A stretch of 64,000 bases of DNA from a virus (lineage: Duplodnaviria; Heunggongvirae; Uroviricota; Caudoviricetes), in the IMG/VR virus record IMGVR_UViG_2541047715_000004; one strand, 5' to 3'. The notes under the pieces were generated by a model that was not told the DNA's origin, ran no database searches, and saw only the letters and a list, made by a program, of their open reading frames with translations. A program made the translations under genes and the position numbers. Positions within the stretch are counted from its first letter, which is position 1; each line of letters starts with the position of its first letter. Shown piece after piece: positions 3,273 through 23,475 of this stretch.

Positions 3273-3686
3273 ATGGCAAGAGGTATGTATGTCTTATGCG
3301 AAATTGAAGGTGTGCTGGCAAATGCCAGCCATCGTAAATCAGTATCTGACGCGGATGCAGGCCAGCTCATTGCCGGTGATGAACTCATTTTCCCCACCAG
3401 CCGTATGTTGCGTGGTTTTGCTCGCTCAGGGGCTGAAGTGGTGCTTATCAGTAGCCGCTCTGAAACTCTTGAAGCGCCAACTAAACGATGGCTGAAAGAT
3501 TTTGGCGTTGATTATGACTGGCTTCATCTTGTACCGAATGGCACCAGTTATGAGAAGCATATTAAGCGCACATTAGCGGAGCATAAAGGCGATCTGCTTA
3601 TCGCTGCGCTGGTGCACGATCCTCGACTCCGTGCCGCTTTAGCCGACTCTCACCATCGACCGGTCATCTATGAGGTGAGCAAATGA
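3273..3686 (+). CDS. hypothetical protein
   Basis: ATG 1 nt after thyA stop; ends overlapping DHFR start. Confidence 0.45.
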   Translation: MARGMYVLCEIEGVLANASHRKSVSDADAGQLIAGDELIFPTSRMLRGFARSGAEVVLISSRSETLEAPTKRWLKDFGVDYDWLHLVPNGTSYEKHIKRTLAEHKGDLLIAALVHDPRLRAALADSHHRPVIYEVSK

Positions 3687-4159
3687 AGATGATCGCTGCT
3701 GTTGGCCGTAACTATGAGATCGGCATAGCGAATGAACTCCCCTGGCGTTGTTCTACCGATCTGAAGCTATTTAAGAGACTCACCAAAAACGCCACTGTCG
3801 TTATGGGGCGTAAAACGATGGAAAGTCTCAAACGCCCTCTTCCAGAGCGTCATAACCTCGTTTTGACGCGCTCTCATGGCTTTGTACCAAATGGATTCTA
3901 CCCTGCTGGTGTGGATGATGTGTTGCGATTACCAGAGCCTGTGTGGGTGATTGGCGGGGAACAAATTTACTCGCTATTCATGCCGCATGTTGAAGAGATT
4001 TGGCTCTCCCACATCGGCGTTGATGTACCAAACGCCGATGCATTCTTCCCGGCAAGCATGATGCGTAACTTAGGCTTTGTGCCTGTTGAAACAGCTTATA
4101 CCCAACGAGCCAGCGAGGAAGAGCCTGGCTTTTCGCAGATCGTATACAGAAGGTCGTAA
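3683..4159 (+). CDS. folA: dihydrofolate reductase
   Basis: MIAAVGRNYEIGIANELPW, VVMGRKTMESL, VIGGEQIY typical of DHFR; 158 aa. Confidence 0.85.
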   Translation: MKMIAAVGRNYEIGIANELPWRCSTDLKLFKRLTKNATVVMGRKTMESLKRPLPERHNLVLTRSHGFVPNGFYPAGVDDVLRLPEPVWVIGGEQIYSLFMPHVEEIWLSHIGVDVPNADAFFPASMMRNLGFVPVETAYTQRASEEEPGFSQIVYRRS

Positions 4160-5293: not shown

Positions 5294-5851
5294 ATGACAA
5301 CGATTGTTGCAGGCATCGATATCGAGTCTACGGGACTGGATTTCCTTGCTGGTCATAAAATTATTGAAATCGCAATTACCCGCTATGAACTGGAGACACA
5401 GAGACATATTGATAGTCTGGAGATGCGTTTTAACCCTCGCAGAAACATAGATCCGAAAGCTCAAGCCGTTCATGGCATTTCATTAGAACAGCTCGCAGCT
5501 GAACCTTTGTTGTCAAATCATGCCAGCGAAATTGGCGCTTATATGGGGGCATGTAGTGCGTGGATTGCTCATAACGGCGAAGCGTTTGATATACCATTTA
5601 TTCGACACGAGTTTTCAGGGTATGGAGTAAGACTGCCAGACGTTCCCGTTATAGATACTATGTTATCGGGATTGTGGGCCACAGAAGACGGTAAACGTCC
5701 TCGCCTTGAAGAGTTGGCCTTCTCTCTTGGCTTTATATACGATCATGCCAAAGCACATAGTGCCTTATATGACACAAACTTAATGATGCAATGCTTCTTT
5801 AAGGCACGTAATAAGTACGGATTTTTTAAATTACCCTCTGAAATTGTGTAA
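5294..5851 (+). CDS. DnaQ-like (DEDDh) 3'-5' exonuclease
   Basis: Exo I motif GIDIESTG, Exo III motif HSALYD; 185 aa. Confidence 0.7.
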   Translation: MTTIVAGIDIESTGLDFLAGHKIIEIAITRYELETQRHIDSLEMRFNPRRNIDPKAQAVHGISLEQLAAEPLLSNHASEIGAYMGACSAWIAHNGEAFDIPFIRHEFSGYGVRLPDVPVIDTMLSGLWATEDGKRPRLEELAFSLGFIYDHAKAHSALYDTNLMMQCFFKARNKYGFFKLPSEIV

Positions 5852-11473: not shown

Positions 11474-11755
11474 ATGGCATACGGTACAGGGATTTACAAC
11501 AATAAAGGAATTAACGTTACTGGCTTCCTTACACCTATTTTTTTTCTTGATCGATTTACGGCGTCATCAGGCTCTAAGACGTACTCTAATCCGCCACCGG
11601 GTAAATCACTACATGCCGTGTGGTCATTAATGCCTCTTAACAACGACAACTACATCAATTTACCTGTTCCAAATGTTACTATTAATGGAAATACGGTTAG
11701 TTGGTCAAATTTATATACGGGGCTTGGTTCTTACATATACACATACTGGGGATAA
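11474..11755 (+). CDS. hypothetical protein (N/G/T/Y-rich)
   Basis: AT-rich ORF. Confidence 0.35.
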   Translation: MAYGTGIYNNKGINVTGFLTPIFFLDRFTASSGSKTYSNPPPGKSLHAVWSLMPLNNDNYINLPVPNVTINGNTVSWSNLYTGLGSYIYTYWG

Positions 11756-11757
11756 TT

Positions 11758-12372
11758 ATGTTCGGGATGTCAATTACTCAATCAGATGGAAGTTTGTGGA
11801 TGAGTCCTGAATTTACTCCGCAAAATCTGATTAATAAAGGGACAATGTCTACATCTAAAGGTTCTGTTTTTCAAACATCAATCCCATCAAACAAATCATG
11901 CTTTTTCTTCATAAAAAGCAGCAATAAGGCGAACATGATGTTTATTCATGAACATAGTAACGGATACAATGCTCTCAGATTGCATCAGGTAAATGGTAGC
12001 CCCGGAACAATAACAGTTTATGCTTTTTCTGATATGGTGTTACCACATTCTGGCTATGGCATTGCCATGTATAACAGCGCAGGCGCAATGGTGTATCACG
12101 GTGAGATGATGCCCCTTGATGCAAAACTTATCACTATTACTGACCCACAATTTACAATAGATATGGGGTATCCGTGCGCAGTAATGCCTGCTATGGTTGG
12201 GGTTTATAACTATAGACGAACCGATTACGACAGACCTGTCTATGTAACTATGACCGGTGCAACTGGAAACCAAGTATATAACGGTCAATGGTATTCCGGT
12301 AATGTCACATGGGATATTAAGAAGATTTATACAAACAAAATCCTGGTTATAAATACCTCAAAGTATGATTAG
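11758..12372 (+). CDS. hypothetical protein (beta-rich, N/Y/G/T-rich)
   Basis: ATG 11758 directly after previous stop; AT-rich. Confidence 0.4.
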   Translation: MFGMSITQSDGSLWMSPEFTPQNLINKGTMSTSKGSVFQTSIPSNKSCFFFIKSSNKANMMFIHEHSNGYNALRLHQVNGSPGTITVYAFSDMVLPHSGYGIAMYNSAGAMVYHGEMMPLDAKLITITDPQFTIDMGYPCAVMPAMVGVYNYRRTDYDRPVYVTMTGATGNQVYNGQWYSGNVTWDIKKIYTNKILVINTSKYD

Positions 12373-12475
12373 CAAATACCTTTATTTAAAGGATTGCCTG
12401 TTAATTTCTATTTAGCACCTTTTCATTTTTGAAATAATTGCACTATTAAACAAATCTTTTCTTAATGGTGCAATT

Positions 12476-12952
12476 ATGAATACAGCTCTTTCCATCATCG
12501 ACGATACCAACTCAAACACTGCTATCGATTATCGTCAGGAAATGAACGTCATCCACGAAATCGTAGCCGAGTGCGAGAAAGAGATCGCCTTCATGTATCA
12601 GGTTCACGACTTCGTTTATGGCGACGAACGCCACAACATGATTAATCGCCTGCTGCAACTGAACCATCGACCAGATGAAGAACGCTCACGTTTGAATCGA
12701 GCTTGGCTGGATAAAGTCGATCTGGAATGGGTGAAACAGAATATTTGGGCCGAGTACTGGAGGAAGGTCACGGATATGACTAACGTTTTGCTGATCATGC
12801 CAGCTTCCCGTCGCGACGAGTGGCGTGAGCAGTTTATAGAGGGCAAACAGGAAGTCATCAAAACTGACAGAACCGGCTACCAGATGAAGGTTAAAGAGTT
12901 CGTTGGTGTACCTGAGTTCAAAGTGGATACAAACATCCCTACGATGGTTTGA
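12476..12952 (+). CDS. hypothetical protein
   Basis: 158-aa ORF convergent with hsdR. Confidence 0.45.
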   Translation: MNTALSIIDDTNSNTAIDYRQEMNVIHEIVAECEKEIAFMYQVHDFVYGDERHNMINRLLQLNHRPDEERSRLNRAWLDKVDLEWVKQNIWAEYWRKVTDMTNVLLIMPASRRDEWREQFIEGKQEVIKTDRTGYQMKVKEFVGVPEFKVDTNIPTMV

Positions 12953-13010
12953 TCTGACAGCTATCTGCAATTTGCACAGATGTCTGCCAGATCTGGTTCA
13001 GATTAATACA

Positions 13011-16000
13011 CTATATCTGCCCACCTACTCCTTTGAACTTTTCAATAAACGTGACGATTTTCTGGAAAACGGTCTGTTTTTTCGTTTTATATTGCGGGTT
13101 TAACGGACTAAGTTTTGGTAATGTCTCGTTTAATTCTGTGCCATTTTCGGTGGCGTATTCGCGTTTTAAAGACGTGCGAATATAGCGTTTCGCCGCCTCT
13201 TCATTGAGATTTTCTTCTTTTATCAATGCTTCTGCTTCACGTTGCTGTTCGCGTTGAGCAAACGTAAAGAATGCCTCAATGATACTGGCTTTGTCTGGTA
13301 AATCATCCAGGTTCGTTTGCTGAATAAAATCGACCACCAGGCCCTCTTTCGCCCGGTTCCCCAGGCTTGAACGAATTAAGCGTTTGACCTCTTCGATCAT
13401 TTCGCCCTTGCCTTTATTTTGTCTGTTGTGTTCGAAAATCAGTCCAAGGATATAATCCAGGTTTATTTCCTGAGACTTCAGCAAATCGACCTCAAAAACT
13501 ACGTCATCCCAGTCAGTGGTTGATTTCTCTTTTTTCTCAGCTTCTTTCTCACGGCGCTGCCAGTCGCGAATATCGTTATAGGCAGAACGATAATCCTGAA
13601 TCTTGCGTTCAGCAGGGAGACGAATTGTTTGCAATTCAGCGAACTTTTCATCATCCACATAATGTTCTGCTTTGAATTTTTCTACCGCAACAGGATCGCT
13701 AAGATCGATTTGTTGCAGGGCTTTCAGCGTGGCAAATTCATCATAGTTTTGCAGGATGTTCTCGGCACGCAGGTATTCACCAAACAGTTTTACGAAGTCT
13801 TTCTTCTCTTTTTCACTTTCAATACTGGCAGGGTCAGGGAACCGTTGTTCCAGTTCTGAAACTACTGCCATAAAGCCGCGTTTAGCTTCACCAGTGGCAG
13901 CATCTGTAAAGCCTTCCATATACTCAGCATAACTCTTTTCTAACACCACATTTTTAGTATTTTTATCACCAAACAGCGTTATGGCATCAATGGTTGAGCG
14001 TTCCAGATCCCGAAAAGTGACGATGTTACCGAAGGTTTTAGTAGCGTCATAAATGCGGTTGGTACGGGAGAATGCCTGCATCAGGCCGTGAAAACGCAAG
14101 TTTTTATCGACGAATAGCGTGTTCAATGTTGGAGCGTCGAAGCCGGTTAAAAACATCCCAACGACAATTAACAGATCGATATCCTGATTTTTAACCCGTT
14201 GGGCTAAATCACGATAGTAGTTCTGAAAACCGTTACTGTCGGTGCTGAAGTTAGTTTTAAAATAGCTGTTATACTCACGAATTGCAGCGTCAAGAAACTC
14301 TTTAGCACTGCTGTCCATTGCGCTGGTATCAAAAGTTTCATCGGAAATTTCACCAATGGCATTTTGTTCTTCATTGGCGGCAAAGGAGAAGATTGTTGCA
14401 ACACGCAGCGGTTTATAGGTAGCCGATTTATTAGCTGCTTCCTCTTGTAACCGTTTAAACGTCGCGTAATAGGCTTTCGCGGCATCCACGCTACTCACTG
14501 CCAGCATGGCATTAAAGCCTTTGGAACCTGGGAAAGTACGGTGGGTCTTCTGGCGGAAGTTATTCAGAATATATTGCGTAATTTCCTGTATACGCATGGG
14601 ATGAAGAAATGCCTGCTGATTTTCAGCCGCACTCAGTTTTTTCTCGTCGGTTTCTGTCTCTAAAGATTTAAACTGTGGCCGCACATCGTTGTAGTCCACC
14701 TTGAATTTGAGCACTTTTTCATCACGAATCGCATCGGTAATTACATACGAATGCAATTCACGACCAAATACGCTGGCGGTCGTTTCTGAGCCTAAGGCGT
14801 TTTCCGGGAAAATAGGTGTGCCGGTAAAACCAAACTGATAATAGCGTTTGAATTTCTTCTTCAGGTTTTTCTGCGCTTCTCCAAACTGGCTGCGGTGACA
14901 TTCATCAAATATAAACACCACTTGCTGATTGTATACAGGCAGGTCGCTTTCTGCTTTCATCAGGTTATTAAGTTTCTGAATAGTGGTGACGATAATTTTG
15001 TTATCGTCCTTATCCAGATTGCGTTTAAGACCTGCGGTATTTTCCGAGCCGTTGACGCTGTCTGGCGAAAAACGCTTATATTCATTCATGGTCTGGTAAT
15101 CGAGGTCTTTCCTGTCGACCACGAAGAAGACTTTATCAATAAAGTCCAGCTCTGTTGCCAGACGCGCGGCTTTAAAGCTGGTGAGGGTTTTACCTGAACC
15201 GGTAGTGTGCCAGATATACCCACCGCTTTCCGGTTTTGACCAGTTCTTCGCTGTAAAGGAACTCTTAATTTTCCACAGAATGCGCTCAGTGGCGGCAATC
15301 TGGTACGGTCGCATCACCAGTAGCGTTTGGCTAACATCGAATACGCTGTAGTTCACTAAGACATTAAGCAGGGTATGTTTCTGGAAAAAGGTGGCGGTAA
15401 AGTCTTTGAGGTCTTTAATCAGCGTGTTGTCTGATTTCGCCCAATTCATGGTGAAGTCAAAACTGTTTTTATCGCGCTTTGTCGTGTTGGCAAAGTAACG
15501 GGTATCGGTGCCGTTGGAAATGACAAACAGTTGCAGATACTTAAACAGAGAATTTTCGCTGTTAAAACTCTCTTTGCTGTAACGATGTATCTGGTTAAAG
15601 GCCTCACGAATCGCCACGCCGCGCTTTTTCAGTTCGATTTGTACCAGCGGTAAGCCATTAACCAGGATCGTGACGTCATAACGGTTAGCATGAGAACCCG
15701 TCTGTTCAAACTGCTGGATAATCTGCACCTTGTTGCGCATGAGATTCTTTTTATCTATCAAATAGATGTTCTCAAGACGCTCGTCATCAAAAATAAAGTC
15801 GCAAATATAGTCGATATGGATTTTACGGGTCTTATCCAGGATGCCATCGCTCGGGTTATCCAGATACTGCTCCGTGAAACGCCGCCATTCGCTGTCATTA
15901 AACACCACACCATTGAGGTTCTGAAGCTGTTCCCGAACGTTGGCCAGCATCGCCGACTGAGATTTTACGGAAATAAATTCATAGCCCTGATTCCGCAGAT

Positions 16001-16127
16001 CCTGAATCAGTTCACGTTCCAGGTCCGATTCGCTCTGGTAGCTGTCGCCTGTTTGCTCGGCTTTGATGTACTTATCAAGAACGATAAAGTTATTGGATTC
16101 AGCAATGGTGTGTGTCTGATGAGTCAT
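13011..16127 (-). CDS. hsdR: type I restriction enzyme R subunit, type IC (EcoR124-like)
   Basis: 1038 aa; Walker [13 protein letters not shown]-box FDECHRS, helicase motifs; N-terminus [20 protein letters not shown] matches my recollection of EcoR124 HsdR. Confidence 0.95.
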
Positions 16128-16248
16128 AGCGCATCCTTTGTGCCGTCTGGCAAGGGCCGGAAGGGCTTTAAGGGCGACTTCCGGCGTGTAAAAAATAGTC
16201 TCTATATAGACCGGATGTTAAGGTGATCCGGTCGGTAGCAATGGTCAA

Positions 16249-17496
16249 TTAGTTACTGATAGTTTCAGGTTTGGGAAAACTGAACAGTAAATCACGATAG
16301 TACTCGTATTGTTTCTGGCGCAACTCGATTTCACGCGGAAGACCTTCGGTGATGGAATTGGTCAAAGCATCAAATTTATCCAGTAATTTCACTATTTTTT
16401 GTTGTTCAACTAGCGATCTTTCAGGAGAATCAGGAAATGGTACTGGTATCATAAGTTTTCTTAAGTTATCATTATAAAGTCTTTTAATAGTTCCACCTTC
16501 AGATATTCCCCATTTTGCTATTTTATAGAAATAGAATAAATATTTATTTAAAACTATTTTTTCATTATTTTCAATCCAGACAATATTGCTATCCTGGAAA
16601 TATGATTCCCTACCATCAAATATAACAGTCCTGCCGATGGTCCCACTGGCAGAAATCAATACTTCGCCAACTTTAGGATAACTATATTTTTCTTTAAATT
16701 CATTAAATAGTTTTCTAGATATATAGGAATCGGGTTCCTTACCAAATGTCCCAATTTTATAAAATGGAATCTCTCCCTCAGAAGATGTTTGTGATTTTAG
16801 GATTCGTTTACACATACGAACTTCACCAATTTCCCCCAAAGCTTTCCACTCAACCTCACCCTCTTTAAAACTCAACAACTGGTCGCGATAGTAGTTGTAT
16901 TGTTTTTTACGCATGCTAAGCTCAGCGGTAAGCTCAGCGGTAAGTGCAGTAAATTTATCCAGAATCCTGACGATTTCAGACTGGATAGCCAGCGACTTTT
17001 CCGGGTTGTTGGGGCAAGGGATGGGGATAAGTAATTTACCTATATCTTTAGCATACAAATGATAAACAGTAGAACCTTTAACCATTTGCAATATCTTTTT
17101 TTTGTTATTTATTATGAAATTACTTAGATATCTACCATCAACACCAGAGCATCTAATAATCAAAATATCGCCGCCTAAAATAACGCCACTTTCTTGAATG
17201 CAACTAGCTGTAGCCAAACCTCTTGGTGTAACGTCTGACGTTGGCATTAGAACATCATTTTTTTCAGATAGAATTGACTCATTGATTGCTTGGTTTGTTT
17301 TTGAGCATACTTTGTCAATTATGGGACCATAATGAGTGAAAAGCTCACCGTAATGAATACAATATCTATTGCCATCTGGAGTTATTTTTTCTTTAGGTAA
17401 AGACTTCCCTTTTAAAAAAGTTGCTAATTTATTTAATGCTACCCACTCAACCTCAGCCCCATCCAGCAGTTTTTCCAGATAACTCAGCTCGCTCAT
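16249..17496 (-). CDS. hsdS: type I R-M specificity subunit, type IC with two divergent TRDs
   Basis: Conserved N-terminal, central ([29 protein letters not shown]) and C-terminal ([41 protein letters not shown]) regions; AT-rich variable TRDs. Confidence 0.95.
16918..16941 (-). repeat. 2 x 12-bp tandem repeat in hsdS central region, encoding TAEL-TAEL
   Basis: + strand AAGCTCAGCGGT twice, then a degenerate third copy. Confidence 0.85.
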
Positions 17497-19055
17497 GCCT
17501 GTACCTCGCTACCTTCAATCTCAGCAACAATCGCATCAATATCTTTACGCAACTGGTCGATTTTGCTGACCGTGGTTTTCAGCTCAGCATTCAGCTCAGC
17601 GATATCGATAATTTCGCGAGTATCTTTCGCTTCCACATAGCTGCTCACCGACAGGTTATAGTCATTCGCGACAACAGTCTCAAACGCAACAGATTTCGCC
17701 AGATGAGCAACATCTTCCTTGCTGGCAAATACCTGCATAATCTGTTCGATATGAGCATCGGTCAGAATGTTGTTGTTAGTCTCTTTTTTGAACAGTTCGC
17801 TGGCATCAATAAACTGAACTTTGGTATCCGTTTTATGTTTAGACAGCACCAGAATATTGACGGCAATAGTGGTGCCAAAGAACAGATTCGGTGCCAGTGA
17901 AATCACGGTTTCGACATAGTTATTGTCGACCAGATACTGACGGATTTTCTGCTCCGCGCCGCCACGGTAAAAAATGCCTGGGAAGCAGACAATCGCAGCG
18001 CGACCTTTGGCCGAAAGATAGTTCAGCGCATGTAATACAAACGCAAAGTCAGCTTTGGATTTGGGGGCCAGAACGCCAGCCGGGGCAAAACGTTCATCGT
18101 TAATCAGCGTCGGGTCATCGCTGCCAATCCATTTCACCGAATACGGCGGGTTAGAAACGATGGCATCAAACGGTTTTTCATCTCTGAAGTGCGGCTCAGT
18201 CAGTGTATTACCCAGCTTGATATCAAACTTGTCGTAGTTGATGTTGTGCAAAAACATGTTCATACGCGCCAGGTTATAGGTCGTATGGTTGATTTCCTGA
18301 CCAAAAAAACCTTCTTCGATGATATGGTCATCAAACTGTTTTTTCGCCTGCAACAACAGCGAACCGGAGCCTGCTGCCGGGTCGTAGATTTTGTTAACGT
18401 GGGTCTGCCCGTGCATAGCCAGTTGTGCAATCAGCTTAGAGACGTGCTGCGGTGTAAAGAACTCGCCGCCGGACTTACCGGCATTCGCCGCATAGTTAGA
18501 AATCAGGAACTCATAGGCGTCACCGAACAGGTCAATCTGATGTTCATGGAAGTCACCAAGTTTTAGCCCTTCAACCCCTTTCAGAACCGCAGCCAAGCGG
18601 GCATTTTTATCTTTAACGGTGTTACCCAGGCGGTTACTGGTGGTATCGAAATCAGCAAACAAACCTTTGATGTCAGCTTCTGAAGGATAACCGTAAGCAG
18701 AACTTTCGATAGCAACGAAGATGCTGTTTAAATCTGCATTCAGTCTGTCATTAGTATTTGCTTTCGCAGCTACGTTGCAGAAAAGCTGACTGGGGTAGAT
18801 GAAGTAGCCTTTAGTTTTGATGGCATCGTCTTTAATGTCATCAGTAATTACGCTGTCATCCAGTTTCGCATAACAGATACTGTCATCACCGGCTTCAATA
18901 TAACTGGAAAAATTTTCGCTGATAAAACGGTAAAAAAGCGCGCCCAAAACGTACTGCTTAAAATCCCATCCATCGACTGAACCCCTGACATCGTTAGCAA
19001 TTTGCCAGATCTGGCGATGAAGCTCTGCACGTTGTTGAATACTTGTCATTTTCAT
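17493..19055 (-). CDS. hsdM: type I R-M N6-adenine DNA methyltransferase subunit
   Basis: 520 aa; motif [14 protein letters not shown]; stop overlaps hsdS start (ATGA). Confidence 0.95.
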
Positions 19056-19407
19056 CCACTTATTTCAGGTTTAAGTAATTGGATGTGATTCTACAGCAAC
19101 TTGGATGCTTTAGCAGTTCGGACATTAGGTAACGAATGACCTAATTAGAGCTTTTTGGAAAAGCGGTATTGTCGGTGCGATTTTAGCTATGTCTGGGTGT
19201 GCGATGGTGCAATACAATGACGGTGAAAAGGTTAGCATCCAGTTCGATGGCTGGTATTGGCTTGGATAGCCTGCCAAAAAACGCAGATAAAGCCTGTCAG
19301 CAATACGGAAAGTCTAAAGCTGTATATCTGCATAGCGCGAACGCTAACCCTCATCTTGCGCCTGGTACGGGTGTTCAGAATACCATCTGGAAATGTGAGC
19401 CTTAAAC

Positions 19408-19659
19408 ATGAGCAACTGGAACATAGCAGCCAAAAGCCAGGAAGAAAGGAATAAAGTTAACGTTGACCTGGCTGCCAGGGGGGTTGCCTACAAAGAGCGA
19501 TTGAACATACCCGTCATAGCGGAACAGGTAGCCCGTGAGCAACCTGAGAACCTGCGCACCTATTTCATGGAACGGCTACGGCACTACCGGCAGTTAAGCC
19601 TCCTGCTGCCAAAAGGAAACGATCCGGTATATCAGAAAGAAGATATAGCCAAAAAATAA
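19408..19659 (+). CDS. hypothetical protein
   Basis: 83-aa ORF between hsdM promoter region and UmuD'-like gene. Confidence 0.4.
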
Positions 19660-19719
19660 CGCGCCACCAGACGAGCGCAAAGCATCGCGCTATTGCACAC
19701 TTCAAGCATCTTTAATGTA

Positions 19720-19739
19720 TACTGTATGGATAAACAGTA
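19720..19739 (+). promoter_or_regulatory. LexA operator (SOS box)
   Basis: TACTGTATGGATAAACAGTA fits CTGT-N8-ACAG; 19 bp upstream of ATG 19758. Confidence 0.65.
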
Positions 19740-19757
19740 CTCTGAGGTGAAAACGCT

Positions 19758-20147
19758 ATGGGCTTCCCTTCTCCTGCGGCGGATTATGCTGAGAGCCGTA
19801 TTTCTCTTGATCAGCAGATAATTAGACATCCTTCAGCGACCTACTTCATGAGGGCAGCTGATAGTCATCATCGTGAGGGAATATTACAGGGTGCATTGCT
19901 GGTGGTCGATTCCTCACTTACCCCGGTTGATGGTTCTCTGCTTGTATGCGCTCTGGATGGGGAATATCGCGTAAAAAGATACCGGAAGTACCCACGTCAG
20001 CATCTGGAGGATTTAAGAACCGGTAAGAAGGAAGCATTGCCAAAGGATGACGATGGATGCACGGGCAGCAATGCCGTGTTTGGTGTGATCACTCACATTA
20101 TCAACGACGCAAGAAGTGGCGAGTTTGATGATTGTCCCGTGATGTAG
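19758..20147 (+). CDS. UmuD'-like S24 peptidase-fold protein lacking the cleavable N-terminal arm (HumD-like)
   Basis: Starts MGFPSPAADY, equivalent to UmuD residue Gly25; Ser (ADS) and Lys (RVKRY) dyad positions conserved; GAGGTG RBS. Confidence 0.7.
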   Translation: MGFPSPAADYAESRISLDQQIIRHPSATYFMRAADSHHREGILQGALLVVDSSLTPVDGSLLVCALDGEYRVKRYRKYPRQHLEDLRTGKKEALPKDDDGCTGSNAVFGVITHIINDARSGEFDDCPVM

Positions 20148-20158
20148 GAGAACTGATT

Positions 20159-20184
20159 AGGCGGTGCAATGCACCGCCTTTTAT
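20159..20184. terminator. bidirectional terminator between convergent UmuD'-like gene and apbC
   Basis: AGGCGGTGCAATGCACCGCCT followed by TTTAT. Confidence 0.6.
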
Positions 20185-21284
20185 CACACTGCGCGGAATG
20201 CGATTTCGCCAGGTATTACTTCACCTTGCCAATACATTTGGGCGGCAACGCGATCTGCGAGGTCACGATAAATAGCCGTAAATTCGCTATCTGGACGACT
20301 AATAACGGTTGGTGTTCCGTTATCCAGATCTTCACGAAGAGAGATATGAAGTGGCATTTGGCCTAACAACTGCGTGTTGTATTTCTCGGCCAGTTTCTGT
20401 GCGCCACCGGTGCCAAAAATTGGCTCGTGATGACCGCAGTTACTGCAAATATGCACACTCATGTTTTCGACGATACCCAGTACCGGCACTTCGACTTTTT
20501 CGAACATCACAATGCCTTTCTTCGCATCGATCAGCGCGATGTCTTGCGGCGTAGTTACCACAACCGCACCAGTTACAGGAATGTTCTGCGCCAGCGTCAA
20601 CTGAATATCACCAGTGCCCGGCGGCATATCGAGAACGAGATAGTCCAGATCAGGCCATAGAGTTTCCTGCAACATCTGCATCAGCGCCTTGCTGGCCATC
20701 GGTCCACGCCACACCATTGCATTGTCGTCGGTGACCAGATAACCAATAGAGTTGGTTGCCAGGCCATGAGACATGATAGGTGCCATGTGAGTACCGTCAG
20801 GTGAGGTTGGACGTTGGTTTTCCGCGCCCAGCATGGTTGGAATTGATGGACCATAGATATCGGCATCCAAAATACCAACTTTCGCACCTTCAGCAGCCAA
20901 CGCCAGTGCCAGGTTTACCGCCGTGGAGGATTTACCCACGCCGCCCTTGCCTGAGCTGACGGCGATAATGTTCTTAACGCCATTAATGCCTGGTTGGTTT
21001 TTGACGCGCTTAAGCGTGGCAATGTTGTACGACAGCTTCCAGTCAATAGCCTTTGCGCCAGTGATACGGAGCAGATCACCACTACATTGCTCTTTCAGGT
21101 CTTCAAAAGGCTTATTCCACACGAAAGGCATGATTAGTTCGACATGCAGTGTGTCATCCATCAACGCAACATGGTGTAACGCTTTAAGCGTAGTCAGGTT
21201 GTGTTTCAGGGTTGGGTGCTGAAAATTAGCCAGCGTACCGGCTACCATTGCTCTCAGGGCATCCGGCGATTTGGACTCGCTCAT
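20184..21284 (-). CDS. apbC: Fe-S cluster carrier ATPase ApbC/Mrp
   Basis: 366 aa, GKGGVGKS P-loop; near-identical to E. coli Mrp as I recall it. Confidence 0.95.
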   Translation of the reverse strand: MSESKSPDALRAMVAGTLANFQHPTLKHNLTTLKALHHVALMDDTLHVELIMPFVWNKPFEDLKEQCSGDLLRITGAKAIDWKLSYNIATLKRVKNQPGINGVKNIIAVSSGKGGVGKSSTAVNLALALAAEGAKVGILDADIYGPSIPTMLGAENQRPTSPDGTHMAPIMSHGLATNSIGYLVTDDNAMVWRGPMASKALMQMLQETLWPDLDYLVLDMPPGTGDIQLTLAQNIPVTGAVVVTTPQDIALIDAKKGIVMFEKVEVPVLGIVENMSVHICSNCGHHEPIFGTGGAQKLAEKYNTQLLGQMPLHISLREDLDNGTPTVISRPDSEFTAIYRDLADRVAAQMYWQGEVIPGEIAFRAV

Positions 21285-21441
21285 CCCGTCTCCTTTATTT
21301 TAATTTGCGCAATTGTCGCCTTGTAGTGTACTCCAGCTACGACATTTAATCATTTATGAGAAATGCTGTTATCACATGGCAGACATAAGGCCATTTTGTT
21401 ACTATCAAGCCCCTTTTCACTACAAAGAAGTAATGCCTACT

Positions 21442-23475
21442 ATGACCCAAGTCGCGAAGAAAATTCTGGTGACGTGCGCGCTGCCGTACGCTAACGGCTC
21501 AATCCACCTCGGCCATATGCTGGAGCACATCCAGGCTGATGTCTGGGTTCGTTACCAGCGAATGCGCGGCCACGAGGTTAATTTCATCTGTGCCGACGAT
21601 GCCCACGGTACGCCGATCATGCTGAAAGCACAGCAGCTTGGTATCACACCGGAGCAGATGATTGGCGAAATGAGTCAGGAACACCAGACTGATTTCGCAG
21701 GCTTTAACATCAGCTATGACAACTATCACTCGACGCACAGCGAAGAGAACCGCCAGCTGTCTGAGCTTATCTATACTCGCCTGAAAGAGAACGGTTTTAT
21801 TAAAAACCGCACTATCTCTCAGTTGTACGACCCGGAAAAAGGCATGTTCCTGCCGGATCGTTTTGTGAAAGGCACCTGCCCGAAATGTAAAGCGCCAGAT
21901 CAATACGGCGATAACTGTGAAGTCTGCGGCGCAACATATAGCCCGACTGAATTGATCGAGCCGAAATCGGTGGTTTCTGGCGCTACCCCGGTAATGCGTG
22001 ATTCCGAACACTTCTTCTTTGATCTGCCTTCTTTCAGCGAAATGTTGCAGGCATGGACCCGCAGCGGCGCGTTGCAGGAGCAGGTGGCGAACAAAATGCA
22101 GGAATGGTTTGAATCCGGCCTGCAACAGTGGGATATCTCCCGAGATGCGCCTTACTTCGGTTTTGAAATTCCGAACGCGCCGGGCAAATATTTCTACGTC
22201 TGGCTGGACGCGCCGATTGGCTACATGGGTTCCTTCAAGAATCTGTGCGACAAACGCGGCGACACTACCAGCTTCGACGAATACTGGAAGAAAGACTCCA
22301 CCGCCGAGCTGTACCACTTCATCGGTAAAGATATCGTTTACTTCCACAGCCTGTTCTGGCCTGCCATGCTGGAAGGCAGCAACTTCCGCAAGCCGACCAA
22401 CCTGTTTGTTCACGGCTATGTGACGGTGAACGGCGCGAAGATGTCCAAGTCTCGCGGCACCTTTATTAAAGCCAGCACCTGGCTGAATCATTTTGACGCC
22501 GACAGCCTGCGTTACTACTACACTGCGAAACTCTCTTCGCGCATTGATGATATCGATCTCAACCTGGAAGATTTTGTTCAGCGCGTGAATGCCGATATCG
22601 TGAACAAAGTGGTTAACCTGGCCTCCCGTAATGCAGGTTTTATCAACAAACGTTTTGACGGCGTGCTGGCAAGCGAACTGGCTGACCCGCAACTGTACAA
22701 AACCTTCACTGATGCCGCTGAAGTGATTGGTGAAGCGTGGGAAAGCCGCGAATTTGGCAAAGCTATCCGTGAAATCATGTCACTGGCTGACCTGGCTAAC
22801 CGCTATGTTGATGAACAGGCTCCGTGGGTGGTGGCGAAGCAGGAAGGCCGCGATGCCGACCTGCAGGCGATTTGCTCTATGGGCATTAACCTGTTCCGCG
22901 TGCTGATGACGTACCTGAAACCGGTACTGCCGAAACTGACTGAACGTGCAGAAGCATTCCTGAATACAGAACTGACCTGGGATGGTATCCAGCAACCGCT
23001 GCTGGGCCATAAAGTGAATCCGTTCAAGGCACTGTATAACCGTATCGATATGAAACAGGTGGAAGCACTGGTGGAAGCATCCAAAGAAGAAGTGAAAGCC
23101 ACAGCTGCACAGGTAACTGGCCCACTGGCTGACGACCCGATTCAGGAAACCATCACCTTTGACGACTTCGCCAAAGTTGACCTGCGTGTGGCGCTGATTG
23201 AAAACGCGGAGTTTGTCGAAGGTTCTGACAAACTGCTGCGTCTGACACTGGATCTCGGTGGTGAAAAGCGTAATGTCTTCTCAGGCATCCGTTCTGCTTA
23301 TCCAGACCCACAGGCACTGATTGGTCGTCACACCATTATGGTGGCTAACCTGGCTCCGCGTAAAATGCGCTTCGGTATCTCCGAAGGCATGGTGATGGCT
23401 GCTGGCCCCGGCGGGAAAGATATCTTCCTGTTAAGCCCGGATGCTGGTGCTAAACCAGGCCACCAGGTTAAGTAA
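21442..23475 (+). CDS. metG: methionine--tRNA ligase
   Basis: 677 aa from ATG 21442; HLGH and KMSKS motifs; near-identical to E. coli MetG as I recall it; divergent from apbC as in E. coli. Confidence 0.95.

Follow-up and report, generated by a model that had tools for sequence, protein, structure and literature searches.

The DNA between positions 19,720 and 20,147 raises the question of whether a mutagenesis accessory of the UmuD type can be carried by a mobile element in an already processed form, under SOS control and separated from any umuC partner. The window, as the whole analysed stretch of 64 kb is called here, was first read from its letters, and this initial annotation proposed an SOS-controlled analogue of UmuD', parallel to HumD of phage P1. 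The results presented here indicate that the gene is very probably humD, an orthologue of P1 humD residing on an SSU5-like Escherichia coli phage-plasmid and acting by a UmuD'-like mechanism.

Identity, start and distribution of the gene

The encoded protein matches the NCBIfam HumD equivalog NF051876 over its full length (1-129/129) with 219.8 bits against a cutoff of 120, and P1 HumD (AAQ14181) itself scores 221.5 bits on the same model. Identity to P1 HumD is 91%, with differences at 11 residues, and lies between 91 and 93% for the HumD proteins of P1 and P1-like phages. Phage Cyrano encodes a fully identical protein, CYRAN_98 (100%), and 66-71% of the residues are shared with N15 gp26, phiKO2 gp23 and HK140 gp28. 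Plasmids from E. coli of about 110 kb are 100% identical over the 1.1-kb humD region, and the matching plasmid locus is named "S24 family peptidase" or "HumD family translesion DNA polymerase" in RefSeq. The parallel with P1 HumD had therefore been drawn too cautiously, since identity, equivalog profile and a LexA site at the same place make the arm-less protein an orthologue. This is an already known gene, described since 1999, annotated in P1 together with its LexA site and provided with its own NCBIfam model; the main value of the analysis is that it confirms the accuracy of a reading made from the sequence alone. P1 HumD has been described as a shorter, already activated UmuD (PMC7092418).

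The initial annotation had named a lack of similarity to S24 peptidases as a finding that would refute it. This similarity is significant, with a Pfam Peptidase_S24 (PF00717) match of E 1.6e-9 (37.9 bits versus 23.3). Among solved structures in the PDB, UmuD' and UmuD are the closest by sequence (E 6.7e-23). AlphaFold on a shallow alignment, in which all sequences were at least 67% identical, gave a pLDDT of 54.5, and a diverse alignment was used instead. The resulting AF2 model has a pLDDT of 72, and its best Foldseek matches are UmuD and UmuD' (TM 0.75-0.76), followed by the C-terminal domains of LexA and lambda cI. The protein does not belong to UmuD proper: the model for the autoproteolytic subunit of Pol V (NF007621) gives 87 bits, under its cutoff of 110, and both the arm and the Cys/Ala-Gly cleavage site are absent.

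Gly25 of UmuD is the residue directly after the RecA-mediated cleavage site. The N-terminus of the new protein reads M-G-F-P-S-P-A-A-D-Y, and in the alignment to E. coli UmuD its Gly2 corresponds to Gly25 and its Met1 to Cys24. A tblastn search with E. coli UmuD aligned UmuD residues 25-139 only. Both the start at the equivalent of Gly25 and the missing N-terminal arm were therefore correctly recognized from the sequence. A longer frame that would restore the arm was sought by three-frame translation of the 98 nt before humD. The frame is closed by a TGA (Table 1), and no in-frame ATG, GTG or TTG occurs between this stop and the humD ATG; consequently, no upstream start can restore the arm, and a longer open reading frame, including one with a non-ATG start, is excluded. 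The M-G-F-P-S-P start recurs in 106 of the 120 close HumD family clusters.

Table 1. Features at and around the humD locus; positions refer to the window unless stated otherwise
Feature	Position	Strand	Basis or remark
Dihydrofolate reductase gene	3683-4159	+	named dfrA51 (trimethoprim resistance) in the annotation of the collinear plasmid
RNase_T/DnaQ-like 3'-5' exonuclease	5294-5851		
Type I restriction-modification genes hsdR/S/M	about 13011-19142; hsdM 17493-19055	- (hsdM)	
hot, DNA polymerase III theta homologue	19408-19659	+	upstream of humD; Pfam DNA_pol3_theta 2.1e-31
Candidate sigma-70 promoter of humD	19694-19723	+	consensus scan, 9/12 matches
LexA (SOS) box TACTGTATGGATAAACAGTA	19720-19739	.	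17/20 matches to the 20-mer consensus
In-frame stop TGA	19743-19745	+	four codons before the humD ATG, overlaps the ribosome-binding site; sequence reading, ORF listing
Ribosome-binding site GAGGTG	19745-19750	+	7 nt before the humD ATG; sequence reading
humD CDS, 129 aa	19758-20147	+	ATG start; ORF listing, profile and alignment matches
Ser36 codon	19863-19865	+	humD CDS
Lys73 codon	19974-19976	+	humD CDS
Acidic C-terminal tail ARSGEFDDCPVM, residues 118-129	20109-20144	+	family-specific 12-residue extension, lacking in UmuD
Intrinsic terminator, stem GGCGGTGC/GCACCGCC (20160-20178) followed by TTTTAT	20160-20184	+	RNA folding
apbC/mrp, Fe-S cluster carrier ATPase	20184-21284	-	full-length, host-type
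metG, methionyl-tRNA synthetase	about 21439-23475	+	full-length, host-type
dnaE, alpha subunit	11555-15073 of pMB5646_2		outside the window

Between this humD and that of P1, dS is 0.80 and dN/dS is 0.05, values which indicate strong purifying selection and an old split instead of a recent transfer. DNA resembling humD was found in 772 of 5426 complete E. coli genomes (about 1 in 7), and 700 of the 813 places were on plasmids. One identity class consists of SSU5-like plasmids of about 106-114 kb, with a humD identity of at least 95%, and a second of P1-like plasmids of about 90-100 kb, with 80-90%. Unannotated pieces in Stx2-converting phages, mEp234 and Sf101 match HumD residues 45-128 only, at about 54% identity. 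Some of them are split in two, and all seem to be what is left of truncated humD copies close to prophage ends.

Control region and the surrounding element

humD has been reported to be LexA-regulated (PMC9603915). The box upstream of the gene is the sole site in the 64-kb window within three mismatches of the LexA 20-mer consensus; the second-best CTG-N10-CAG site has eight mismatches, and no match arose in 100 dinucleotide-preserving shuffles of the window. A near-consensus box 19 bp upstream had been claimed. The box itself stands, and the spacing has to be corrected, as 18 nt separate it from the ATG here, versus 19 nt in P1. The P1 record AF234173 carries the feature "LexA binding site in the regulatory region of lxr and humD" 19 nt before humD, and in the alignment this annotated site and the present box are homologous. 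The record of phiKO2 likewise annotates a LexA site for its humD homologue. The box is kept in P1 and Cyrano, in alignments where the promoter sequence on either side has drifted apart, in Cyrano completely. Eight arm-less humD-type genes were examined, from the window, P1, Cyrano, N15, phiKO2, HK140, Aeromonas pAEv1818 and Hafnia yong1, and in all eight a CTG-N10-CAG box precedes the gene or the short operon to which it belongs. As far as the sequence can tell, the predicted LexA box would place humD under SOS control.

The candidate promoter is composed of a -35-like TGCACA (19694-19699), an 18-nt spacer and a -10-like TATACT (19718-19723). The promoter scan is not significant alone, with one site found and 1.5 expected from shuffles. 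This site is the only promoter-like one in the humD region, and the candidate carries weight because of its position, its -10 hexamer overlapping the LexA box. TTGCAC and TATACT/TGTACT are in part conserved in P1 and Cyrano. Behind the gene, the consensus scan for promoters and terminators gave no terminator, and the structure was revealed by RNA folding as a 9-pair hairpin with a G+C-rich stem (dG -18.9 kcal/mol, z -3.67, none of 200 shuffles as stable). It sits between the convergent genes humD and apbC, and in the records of N15 and phiKO2 a terminator is annotated in the corresponding position behind the humD homologue. Another terminator-like hairpin was observed on the minus strand at 19660-19679, where its T-run is the complement of the last hot codons. 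It may serve to end divergent transcripts that leave the humD control region, where lxr is found in P1, or it may be due to chance.

The window is collinear with the plasmid pMB5646_2 (NZ_CP103659, 109.6 kb) at 97-99% identity and largely collinear with phage Cyrano, and its relationship to Salmonella phage SSU5 is more remote. The element is therefore an SSU5-like phage-plasmid and not P1. The hot gene upstream of humD passes the NCBIfam theta model narrowly (97.6 bits versus a cutoff of 97) and is 90% identical to P1 hot at the DNA level. In the gap between hot and humD (19645-19708), 64 nt stand for 718 nt of P1, and lxr is missing. Hot, the DnaQ-like exonuclease and DnaE together look like a Pol III core-like set of the element's own. 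The genes apbC and metG directly follow humD, the same pair being present in Cyrano, and represent unusual housekeeping cargo for a phage-plasmid. The hsdR/S/M genes match those of P1-like phages at about 95% and are missing from the Cyrano and SSU5 backbones. As both the hsd genes and the hot-humD pair match P1, they appear to be cargo that has passed between these two groups of phage-plasmids. Genes of the dfrA51 type were recently reported from SSU5-like phage-plasmids (PMC12217456). On pMB5646_2, a further good LexA box, CACTGTATAAGTAAACAGTA, occupies positions 20767-20786, about 27 nt upstream of a tyrosine recombinase gene, and the recombinase may therefore be SOS-controlled as well.

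The SOS-controlled hot-humD module is common to P1-like and SSU5-like elements, which are two of the main groups among resistance-carrying phage-plasmids. A damage-inducible mutagenesis helper therefore appears to be frequent cargo on such elements.

Possible functions of HumD

The initial annotation had noted that the window contains no umuC-like partner, and tblastn agrees, with a best E of 0.94 for UmuC in the 64-kb window. The search for a Pol V catalytic subunit, which had been recommended beyond the window, found no UmuC homologue on the collinear plasmid pMB5646_2 (best tblastn E 0.46), and no Y-family polymerase is listed in the annotation of the whole plasmid. In the window and on the collinear plasmid, the gene is an orphan, as is characteristic of the HumD family, and umuC lies beside none of the eight arm-less genes named above. 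A host umuC is present in 5423 of the 5426 complete E. coli genomes.

According to the proposed mechanism, host LexA would repress humD in the undamaged cell by occupying the 20-bp box, which reaches into the -10 region. Once DNA is damaged, cleavage of LexA induced by RecA* would derepress a monocistronic humD transcript ending at the hairpin terminator. Its product would be a look-alike of UmuD' made without the 24-residue arm, so that RecA-mediated self-cleavage would not be needed. A HumD dimer could then join the host's own UmuC and RecA-ATP in a Pol V-like translesion polymerase. By skipping the slow RecA-dependent processing of UmuD, lesion bypass and mutagenesis would become available to element and host earlier in the SOS response. 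McLenigan et al. reportedly found in 1999 that P1 HumD can stand in for UmuD' in both mutagenesis and survival after UV, that it forms dimers, and that UmuC and RecA filaments are among its binding partners. With 91% identity to that protein, the present HumD may be expected to replace UmuD' and to bind the same two partners.

In the same study, P1 HumD is said to have been poorly expressed and to have complemented well only from high-copy plasmids. Mutagenesis may therefore not be the main natural role of the protein. HumD could mainly be a modulator instead of a mutagenesis subunit, acting through heterodimers with the full-length UmuD of the host or through binding to Pol III subunits or RecA filaments. 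It would then cancel the replication-slowing UmuD2C checkpoint or re-tune the SOS replisome for the element, possibly together with Hot. Both UmuD and its processed form contact three subunits of Pol III (alpha, beta and epsilon), and UmuD' pairs preferentially with UmuD. The position of hot next to humD both in P1 and in the unrelated phage-plasmid backbone studied here also speaks for such a role, as do the element's own dnaE and DnaQ-like exonuclease genes and the homologue of phiKO2 and HK140, which has one LexA box in common with the divergent dinI, the gene of a RecA-filament modulator. The association of humD with hot, and on this element with dnaE and the exonuclease gene, hints at a replisome-directed function. 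The linkage with hot is not obligatory, however, because Cyrano has humD without hot, and the published work on P1 reportedly describes true UmuD'-like complementation. A role mainly as modulator is accordingly considered unlikely.

The proposed UmuD'-like mechanism leaves one feature aside. HumD ends in ...N-D-A-R-S-G-E-F-D-D-C-P-V-M-COOH, and this acidic tail is nearly invariant among close relatives (120 family clusters) and discernible down to about 40% identity in forms such as EWDDLPVI, EFDDTPF and EFDEIPCI. The conserved tail has no part in the UmuD'-like mechanism, which counts against it as the best explanation, and current HumD models do not explain it; it is the one point here that merits a specialist's attention. 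A HMMER scan of 1.84 billion representatives yielded 3416 HumD homologues. Arm, tail and dyad were counted in near-full-length representatives at 50% identity among the best 150 of these 3416, arm-bearing proteins being those whose arm is 8 residues or longer. Within these best 150, the tail occurs in 13 of 29 arm-less representatives versus 1 of 58 arm-bearing ones. In the AF2 model, the tail is predicted with low confidence to have no secondary structure, with a pLDDT below 50 for residues 125-129, and it is probably flexible.

[quoted passage not shown] The HumD tail resembles this C-terminal tip, and one relative ends in ...EFDDTPF; the likeness is a lead at the level of sequence. A paper on the RecA C-terminal tail was also checked and held nothing relevant to the HumD tail. 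The arm-less HumD clade might have traded arm and dyad for a new interaction module, with the C-terminal tip N-D-x-R-x-x-E-F-D-D-C-P-V-M-COOH docking or competing at the partners of the SSB tip. The tip could dock HumD2-UmuC onto proteins that read the SSB tip (chi of the clamp loader, RecO, PriA and others), or it could compete with SSB for the proteins that recognise this tip. The tail would then be a phage-specific means of steering translesion synthesis or the replisome. This proposal is regarded as speculative and improbable.

Ser36 and Lys73 of HumD align with Ser60 and Lys97 of UmuD, and the Lys of this pair is present in 117 of the 120 close relatives. UmuD cleavage can be intermolecular. 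HumD might on these grounds be an active S24 serine peptidase that uses Ser36/Lys73 to cleave another protein in trans, such as host UmuD, LexA or a phage repressor. The GDSM motif, however, reads ADSH in this HumD, and position 36 is occupied by Ser in 75 of the 120 close family clusters, by Thr in 43 and by Ala in 2. In the best 150 of the 3416 homologues, both Ser and Lys are found in 2 of 29 arm-less versus 45 of 58 arm-bearing representatives (Fisher p 1.8e-10, not corrected for phylogeny). The comparison indicates that, in the wider family, proteins lacking the substrate arm tend also to have a decayed catalytic pair, the pattern expected if catalysis becomes dispensable once the arm is lost. 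The initial annotation had stated that the Ser-Lys dyad is kept; both residues are there, and the degenerate ADSH motif does not sustain the dyad as a sign of activity. As the arm-less relatives largely lack the dyad, its presence is not evidence of peptidase activity, and in the HumD studied here the pair is probably a vestigial relic. Cleavage in trans is accordingly judged very improbable, and the decay of the dyad in arm-less members adds a comparative result of modest value.

That the frame is a functionless, decaying remnant of a umuDC operon, as the missing arm and umuC partner and the truncated pieces of the same gene in Stx2 and lambdoid phages might suggest, is hardly credible and effectively refuted by the low dN/dS at a dS of 0.80, the exact M-G-F-P-S-P start in most close clusters, the conserved LexA box, ribosome-binding site and terminator, and the occurrence of humD-like DNA in hundreds of genomes.

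Comparison with known systems

The closest described system is HumD of P1, which has the same length of 129 residues, the same M-G-F-P-S-P start and the same tail; in both, the LexA box precedes the ATG by 18-19 nt, hot is the upstream neighbour and umuC is absent. It differs in its setting. The element studied here is a siphovirus-type phage-plasmid of the SSU5 kind without lxr, its downstream genes are apbC and metG whereas those of P1 are phd and doc, and the two genes are separated by the high dS given above.

The orphan UmuD'-like phage proteins N15 gp26, phiKO2 gp23, HK140 gp28 and their relatives (PHROG 811) resemble HumD in their arm-less start, acidic tail and LexA box, in a monocistronic or moron-like position with a downstream terminator, and in an identity of 66-71%. 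Their catalytic Ser is replaced by Thr, and a divergent dinI is often found instead of hot. In phiKO2 (stretch 1181-1884) and HK140 (910-1890), dinI, encoding the RecA-filament modulator, is paired with the gene of the pre-cleaved UmuD'.

The plasmid and ICE homologues MucA, RumA, ImpA and SamA, as well as the full-length UmuD proteins of phages Oslo and ENT39118, are likewise mobile, LexA-controlled mutagenesis accessories of the S24 family. In contrast to HumD, they retain an arm that can be cleaved as well as the GDSM/Lys dyad, and their genes share an operon with a umuC homologue; in the distant homologues of Oslo and ENT39118, the arm is kept or umuC adjoins.

E. coli UmuD' (PDB 1UMU, 1AY9, 1I4V) shares with HumD its fold, the post-cleavage N-terminus at Gly25 and 42-44% identity over 115 residues, and the same partner, UmuC, is presumed for both. 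UmuD' arises post-translationally from a 139-residue precursor encoded in the umuC operon, whereas HumD is genetically truncated and an orphan. HumD is also extended at its C-terminus by an acidic stretch of 12 residues, and its loop at residues 96-105 is longer.
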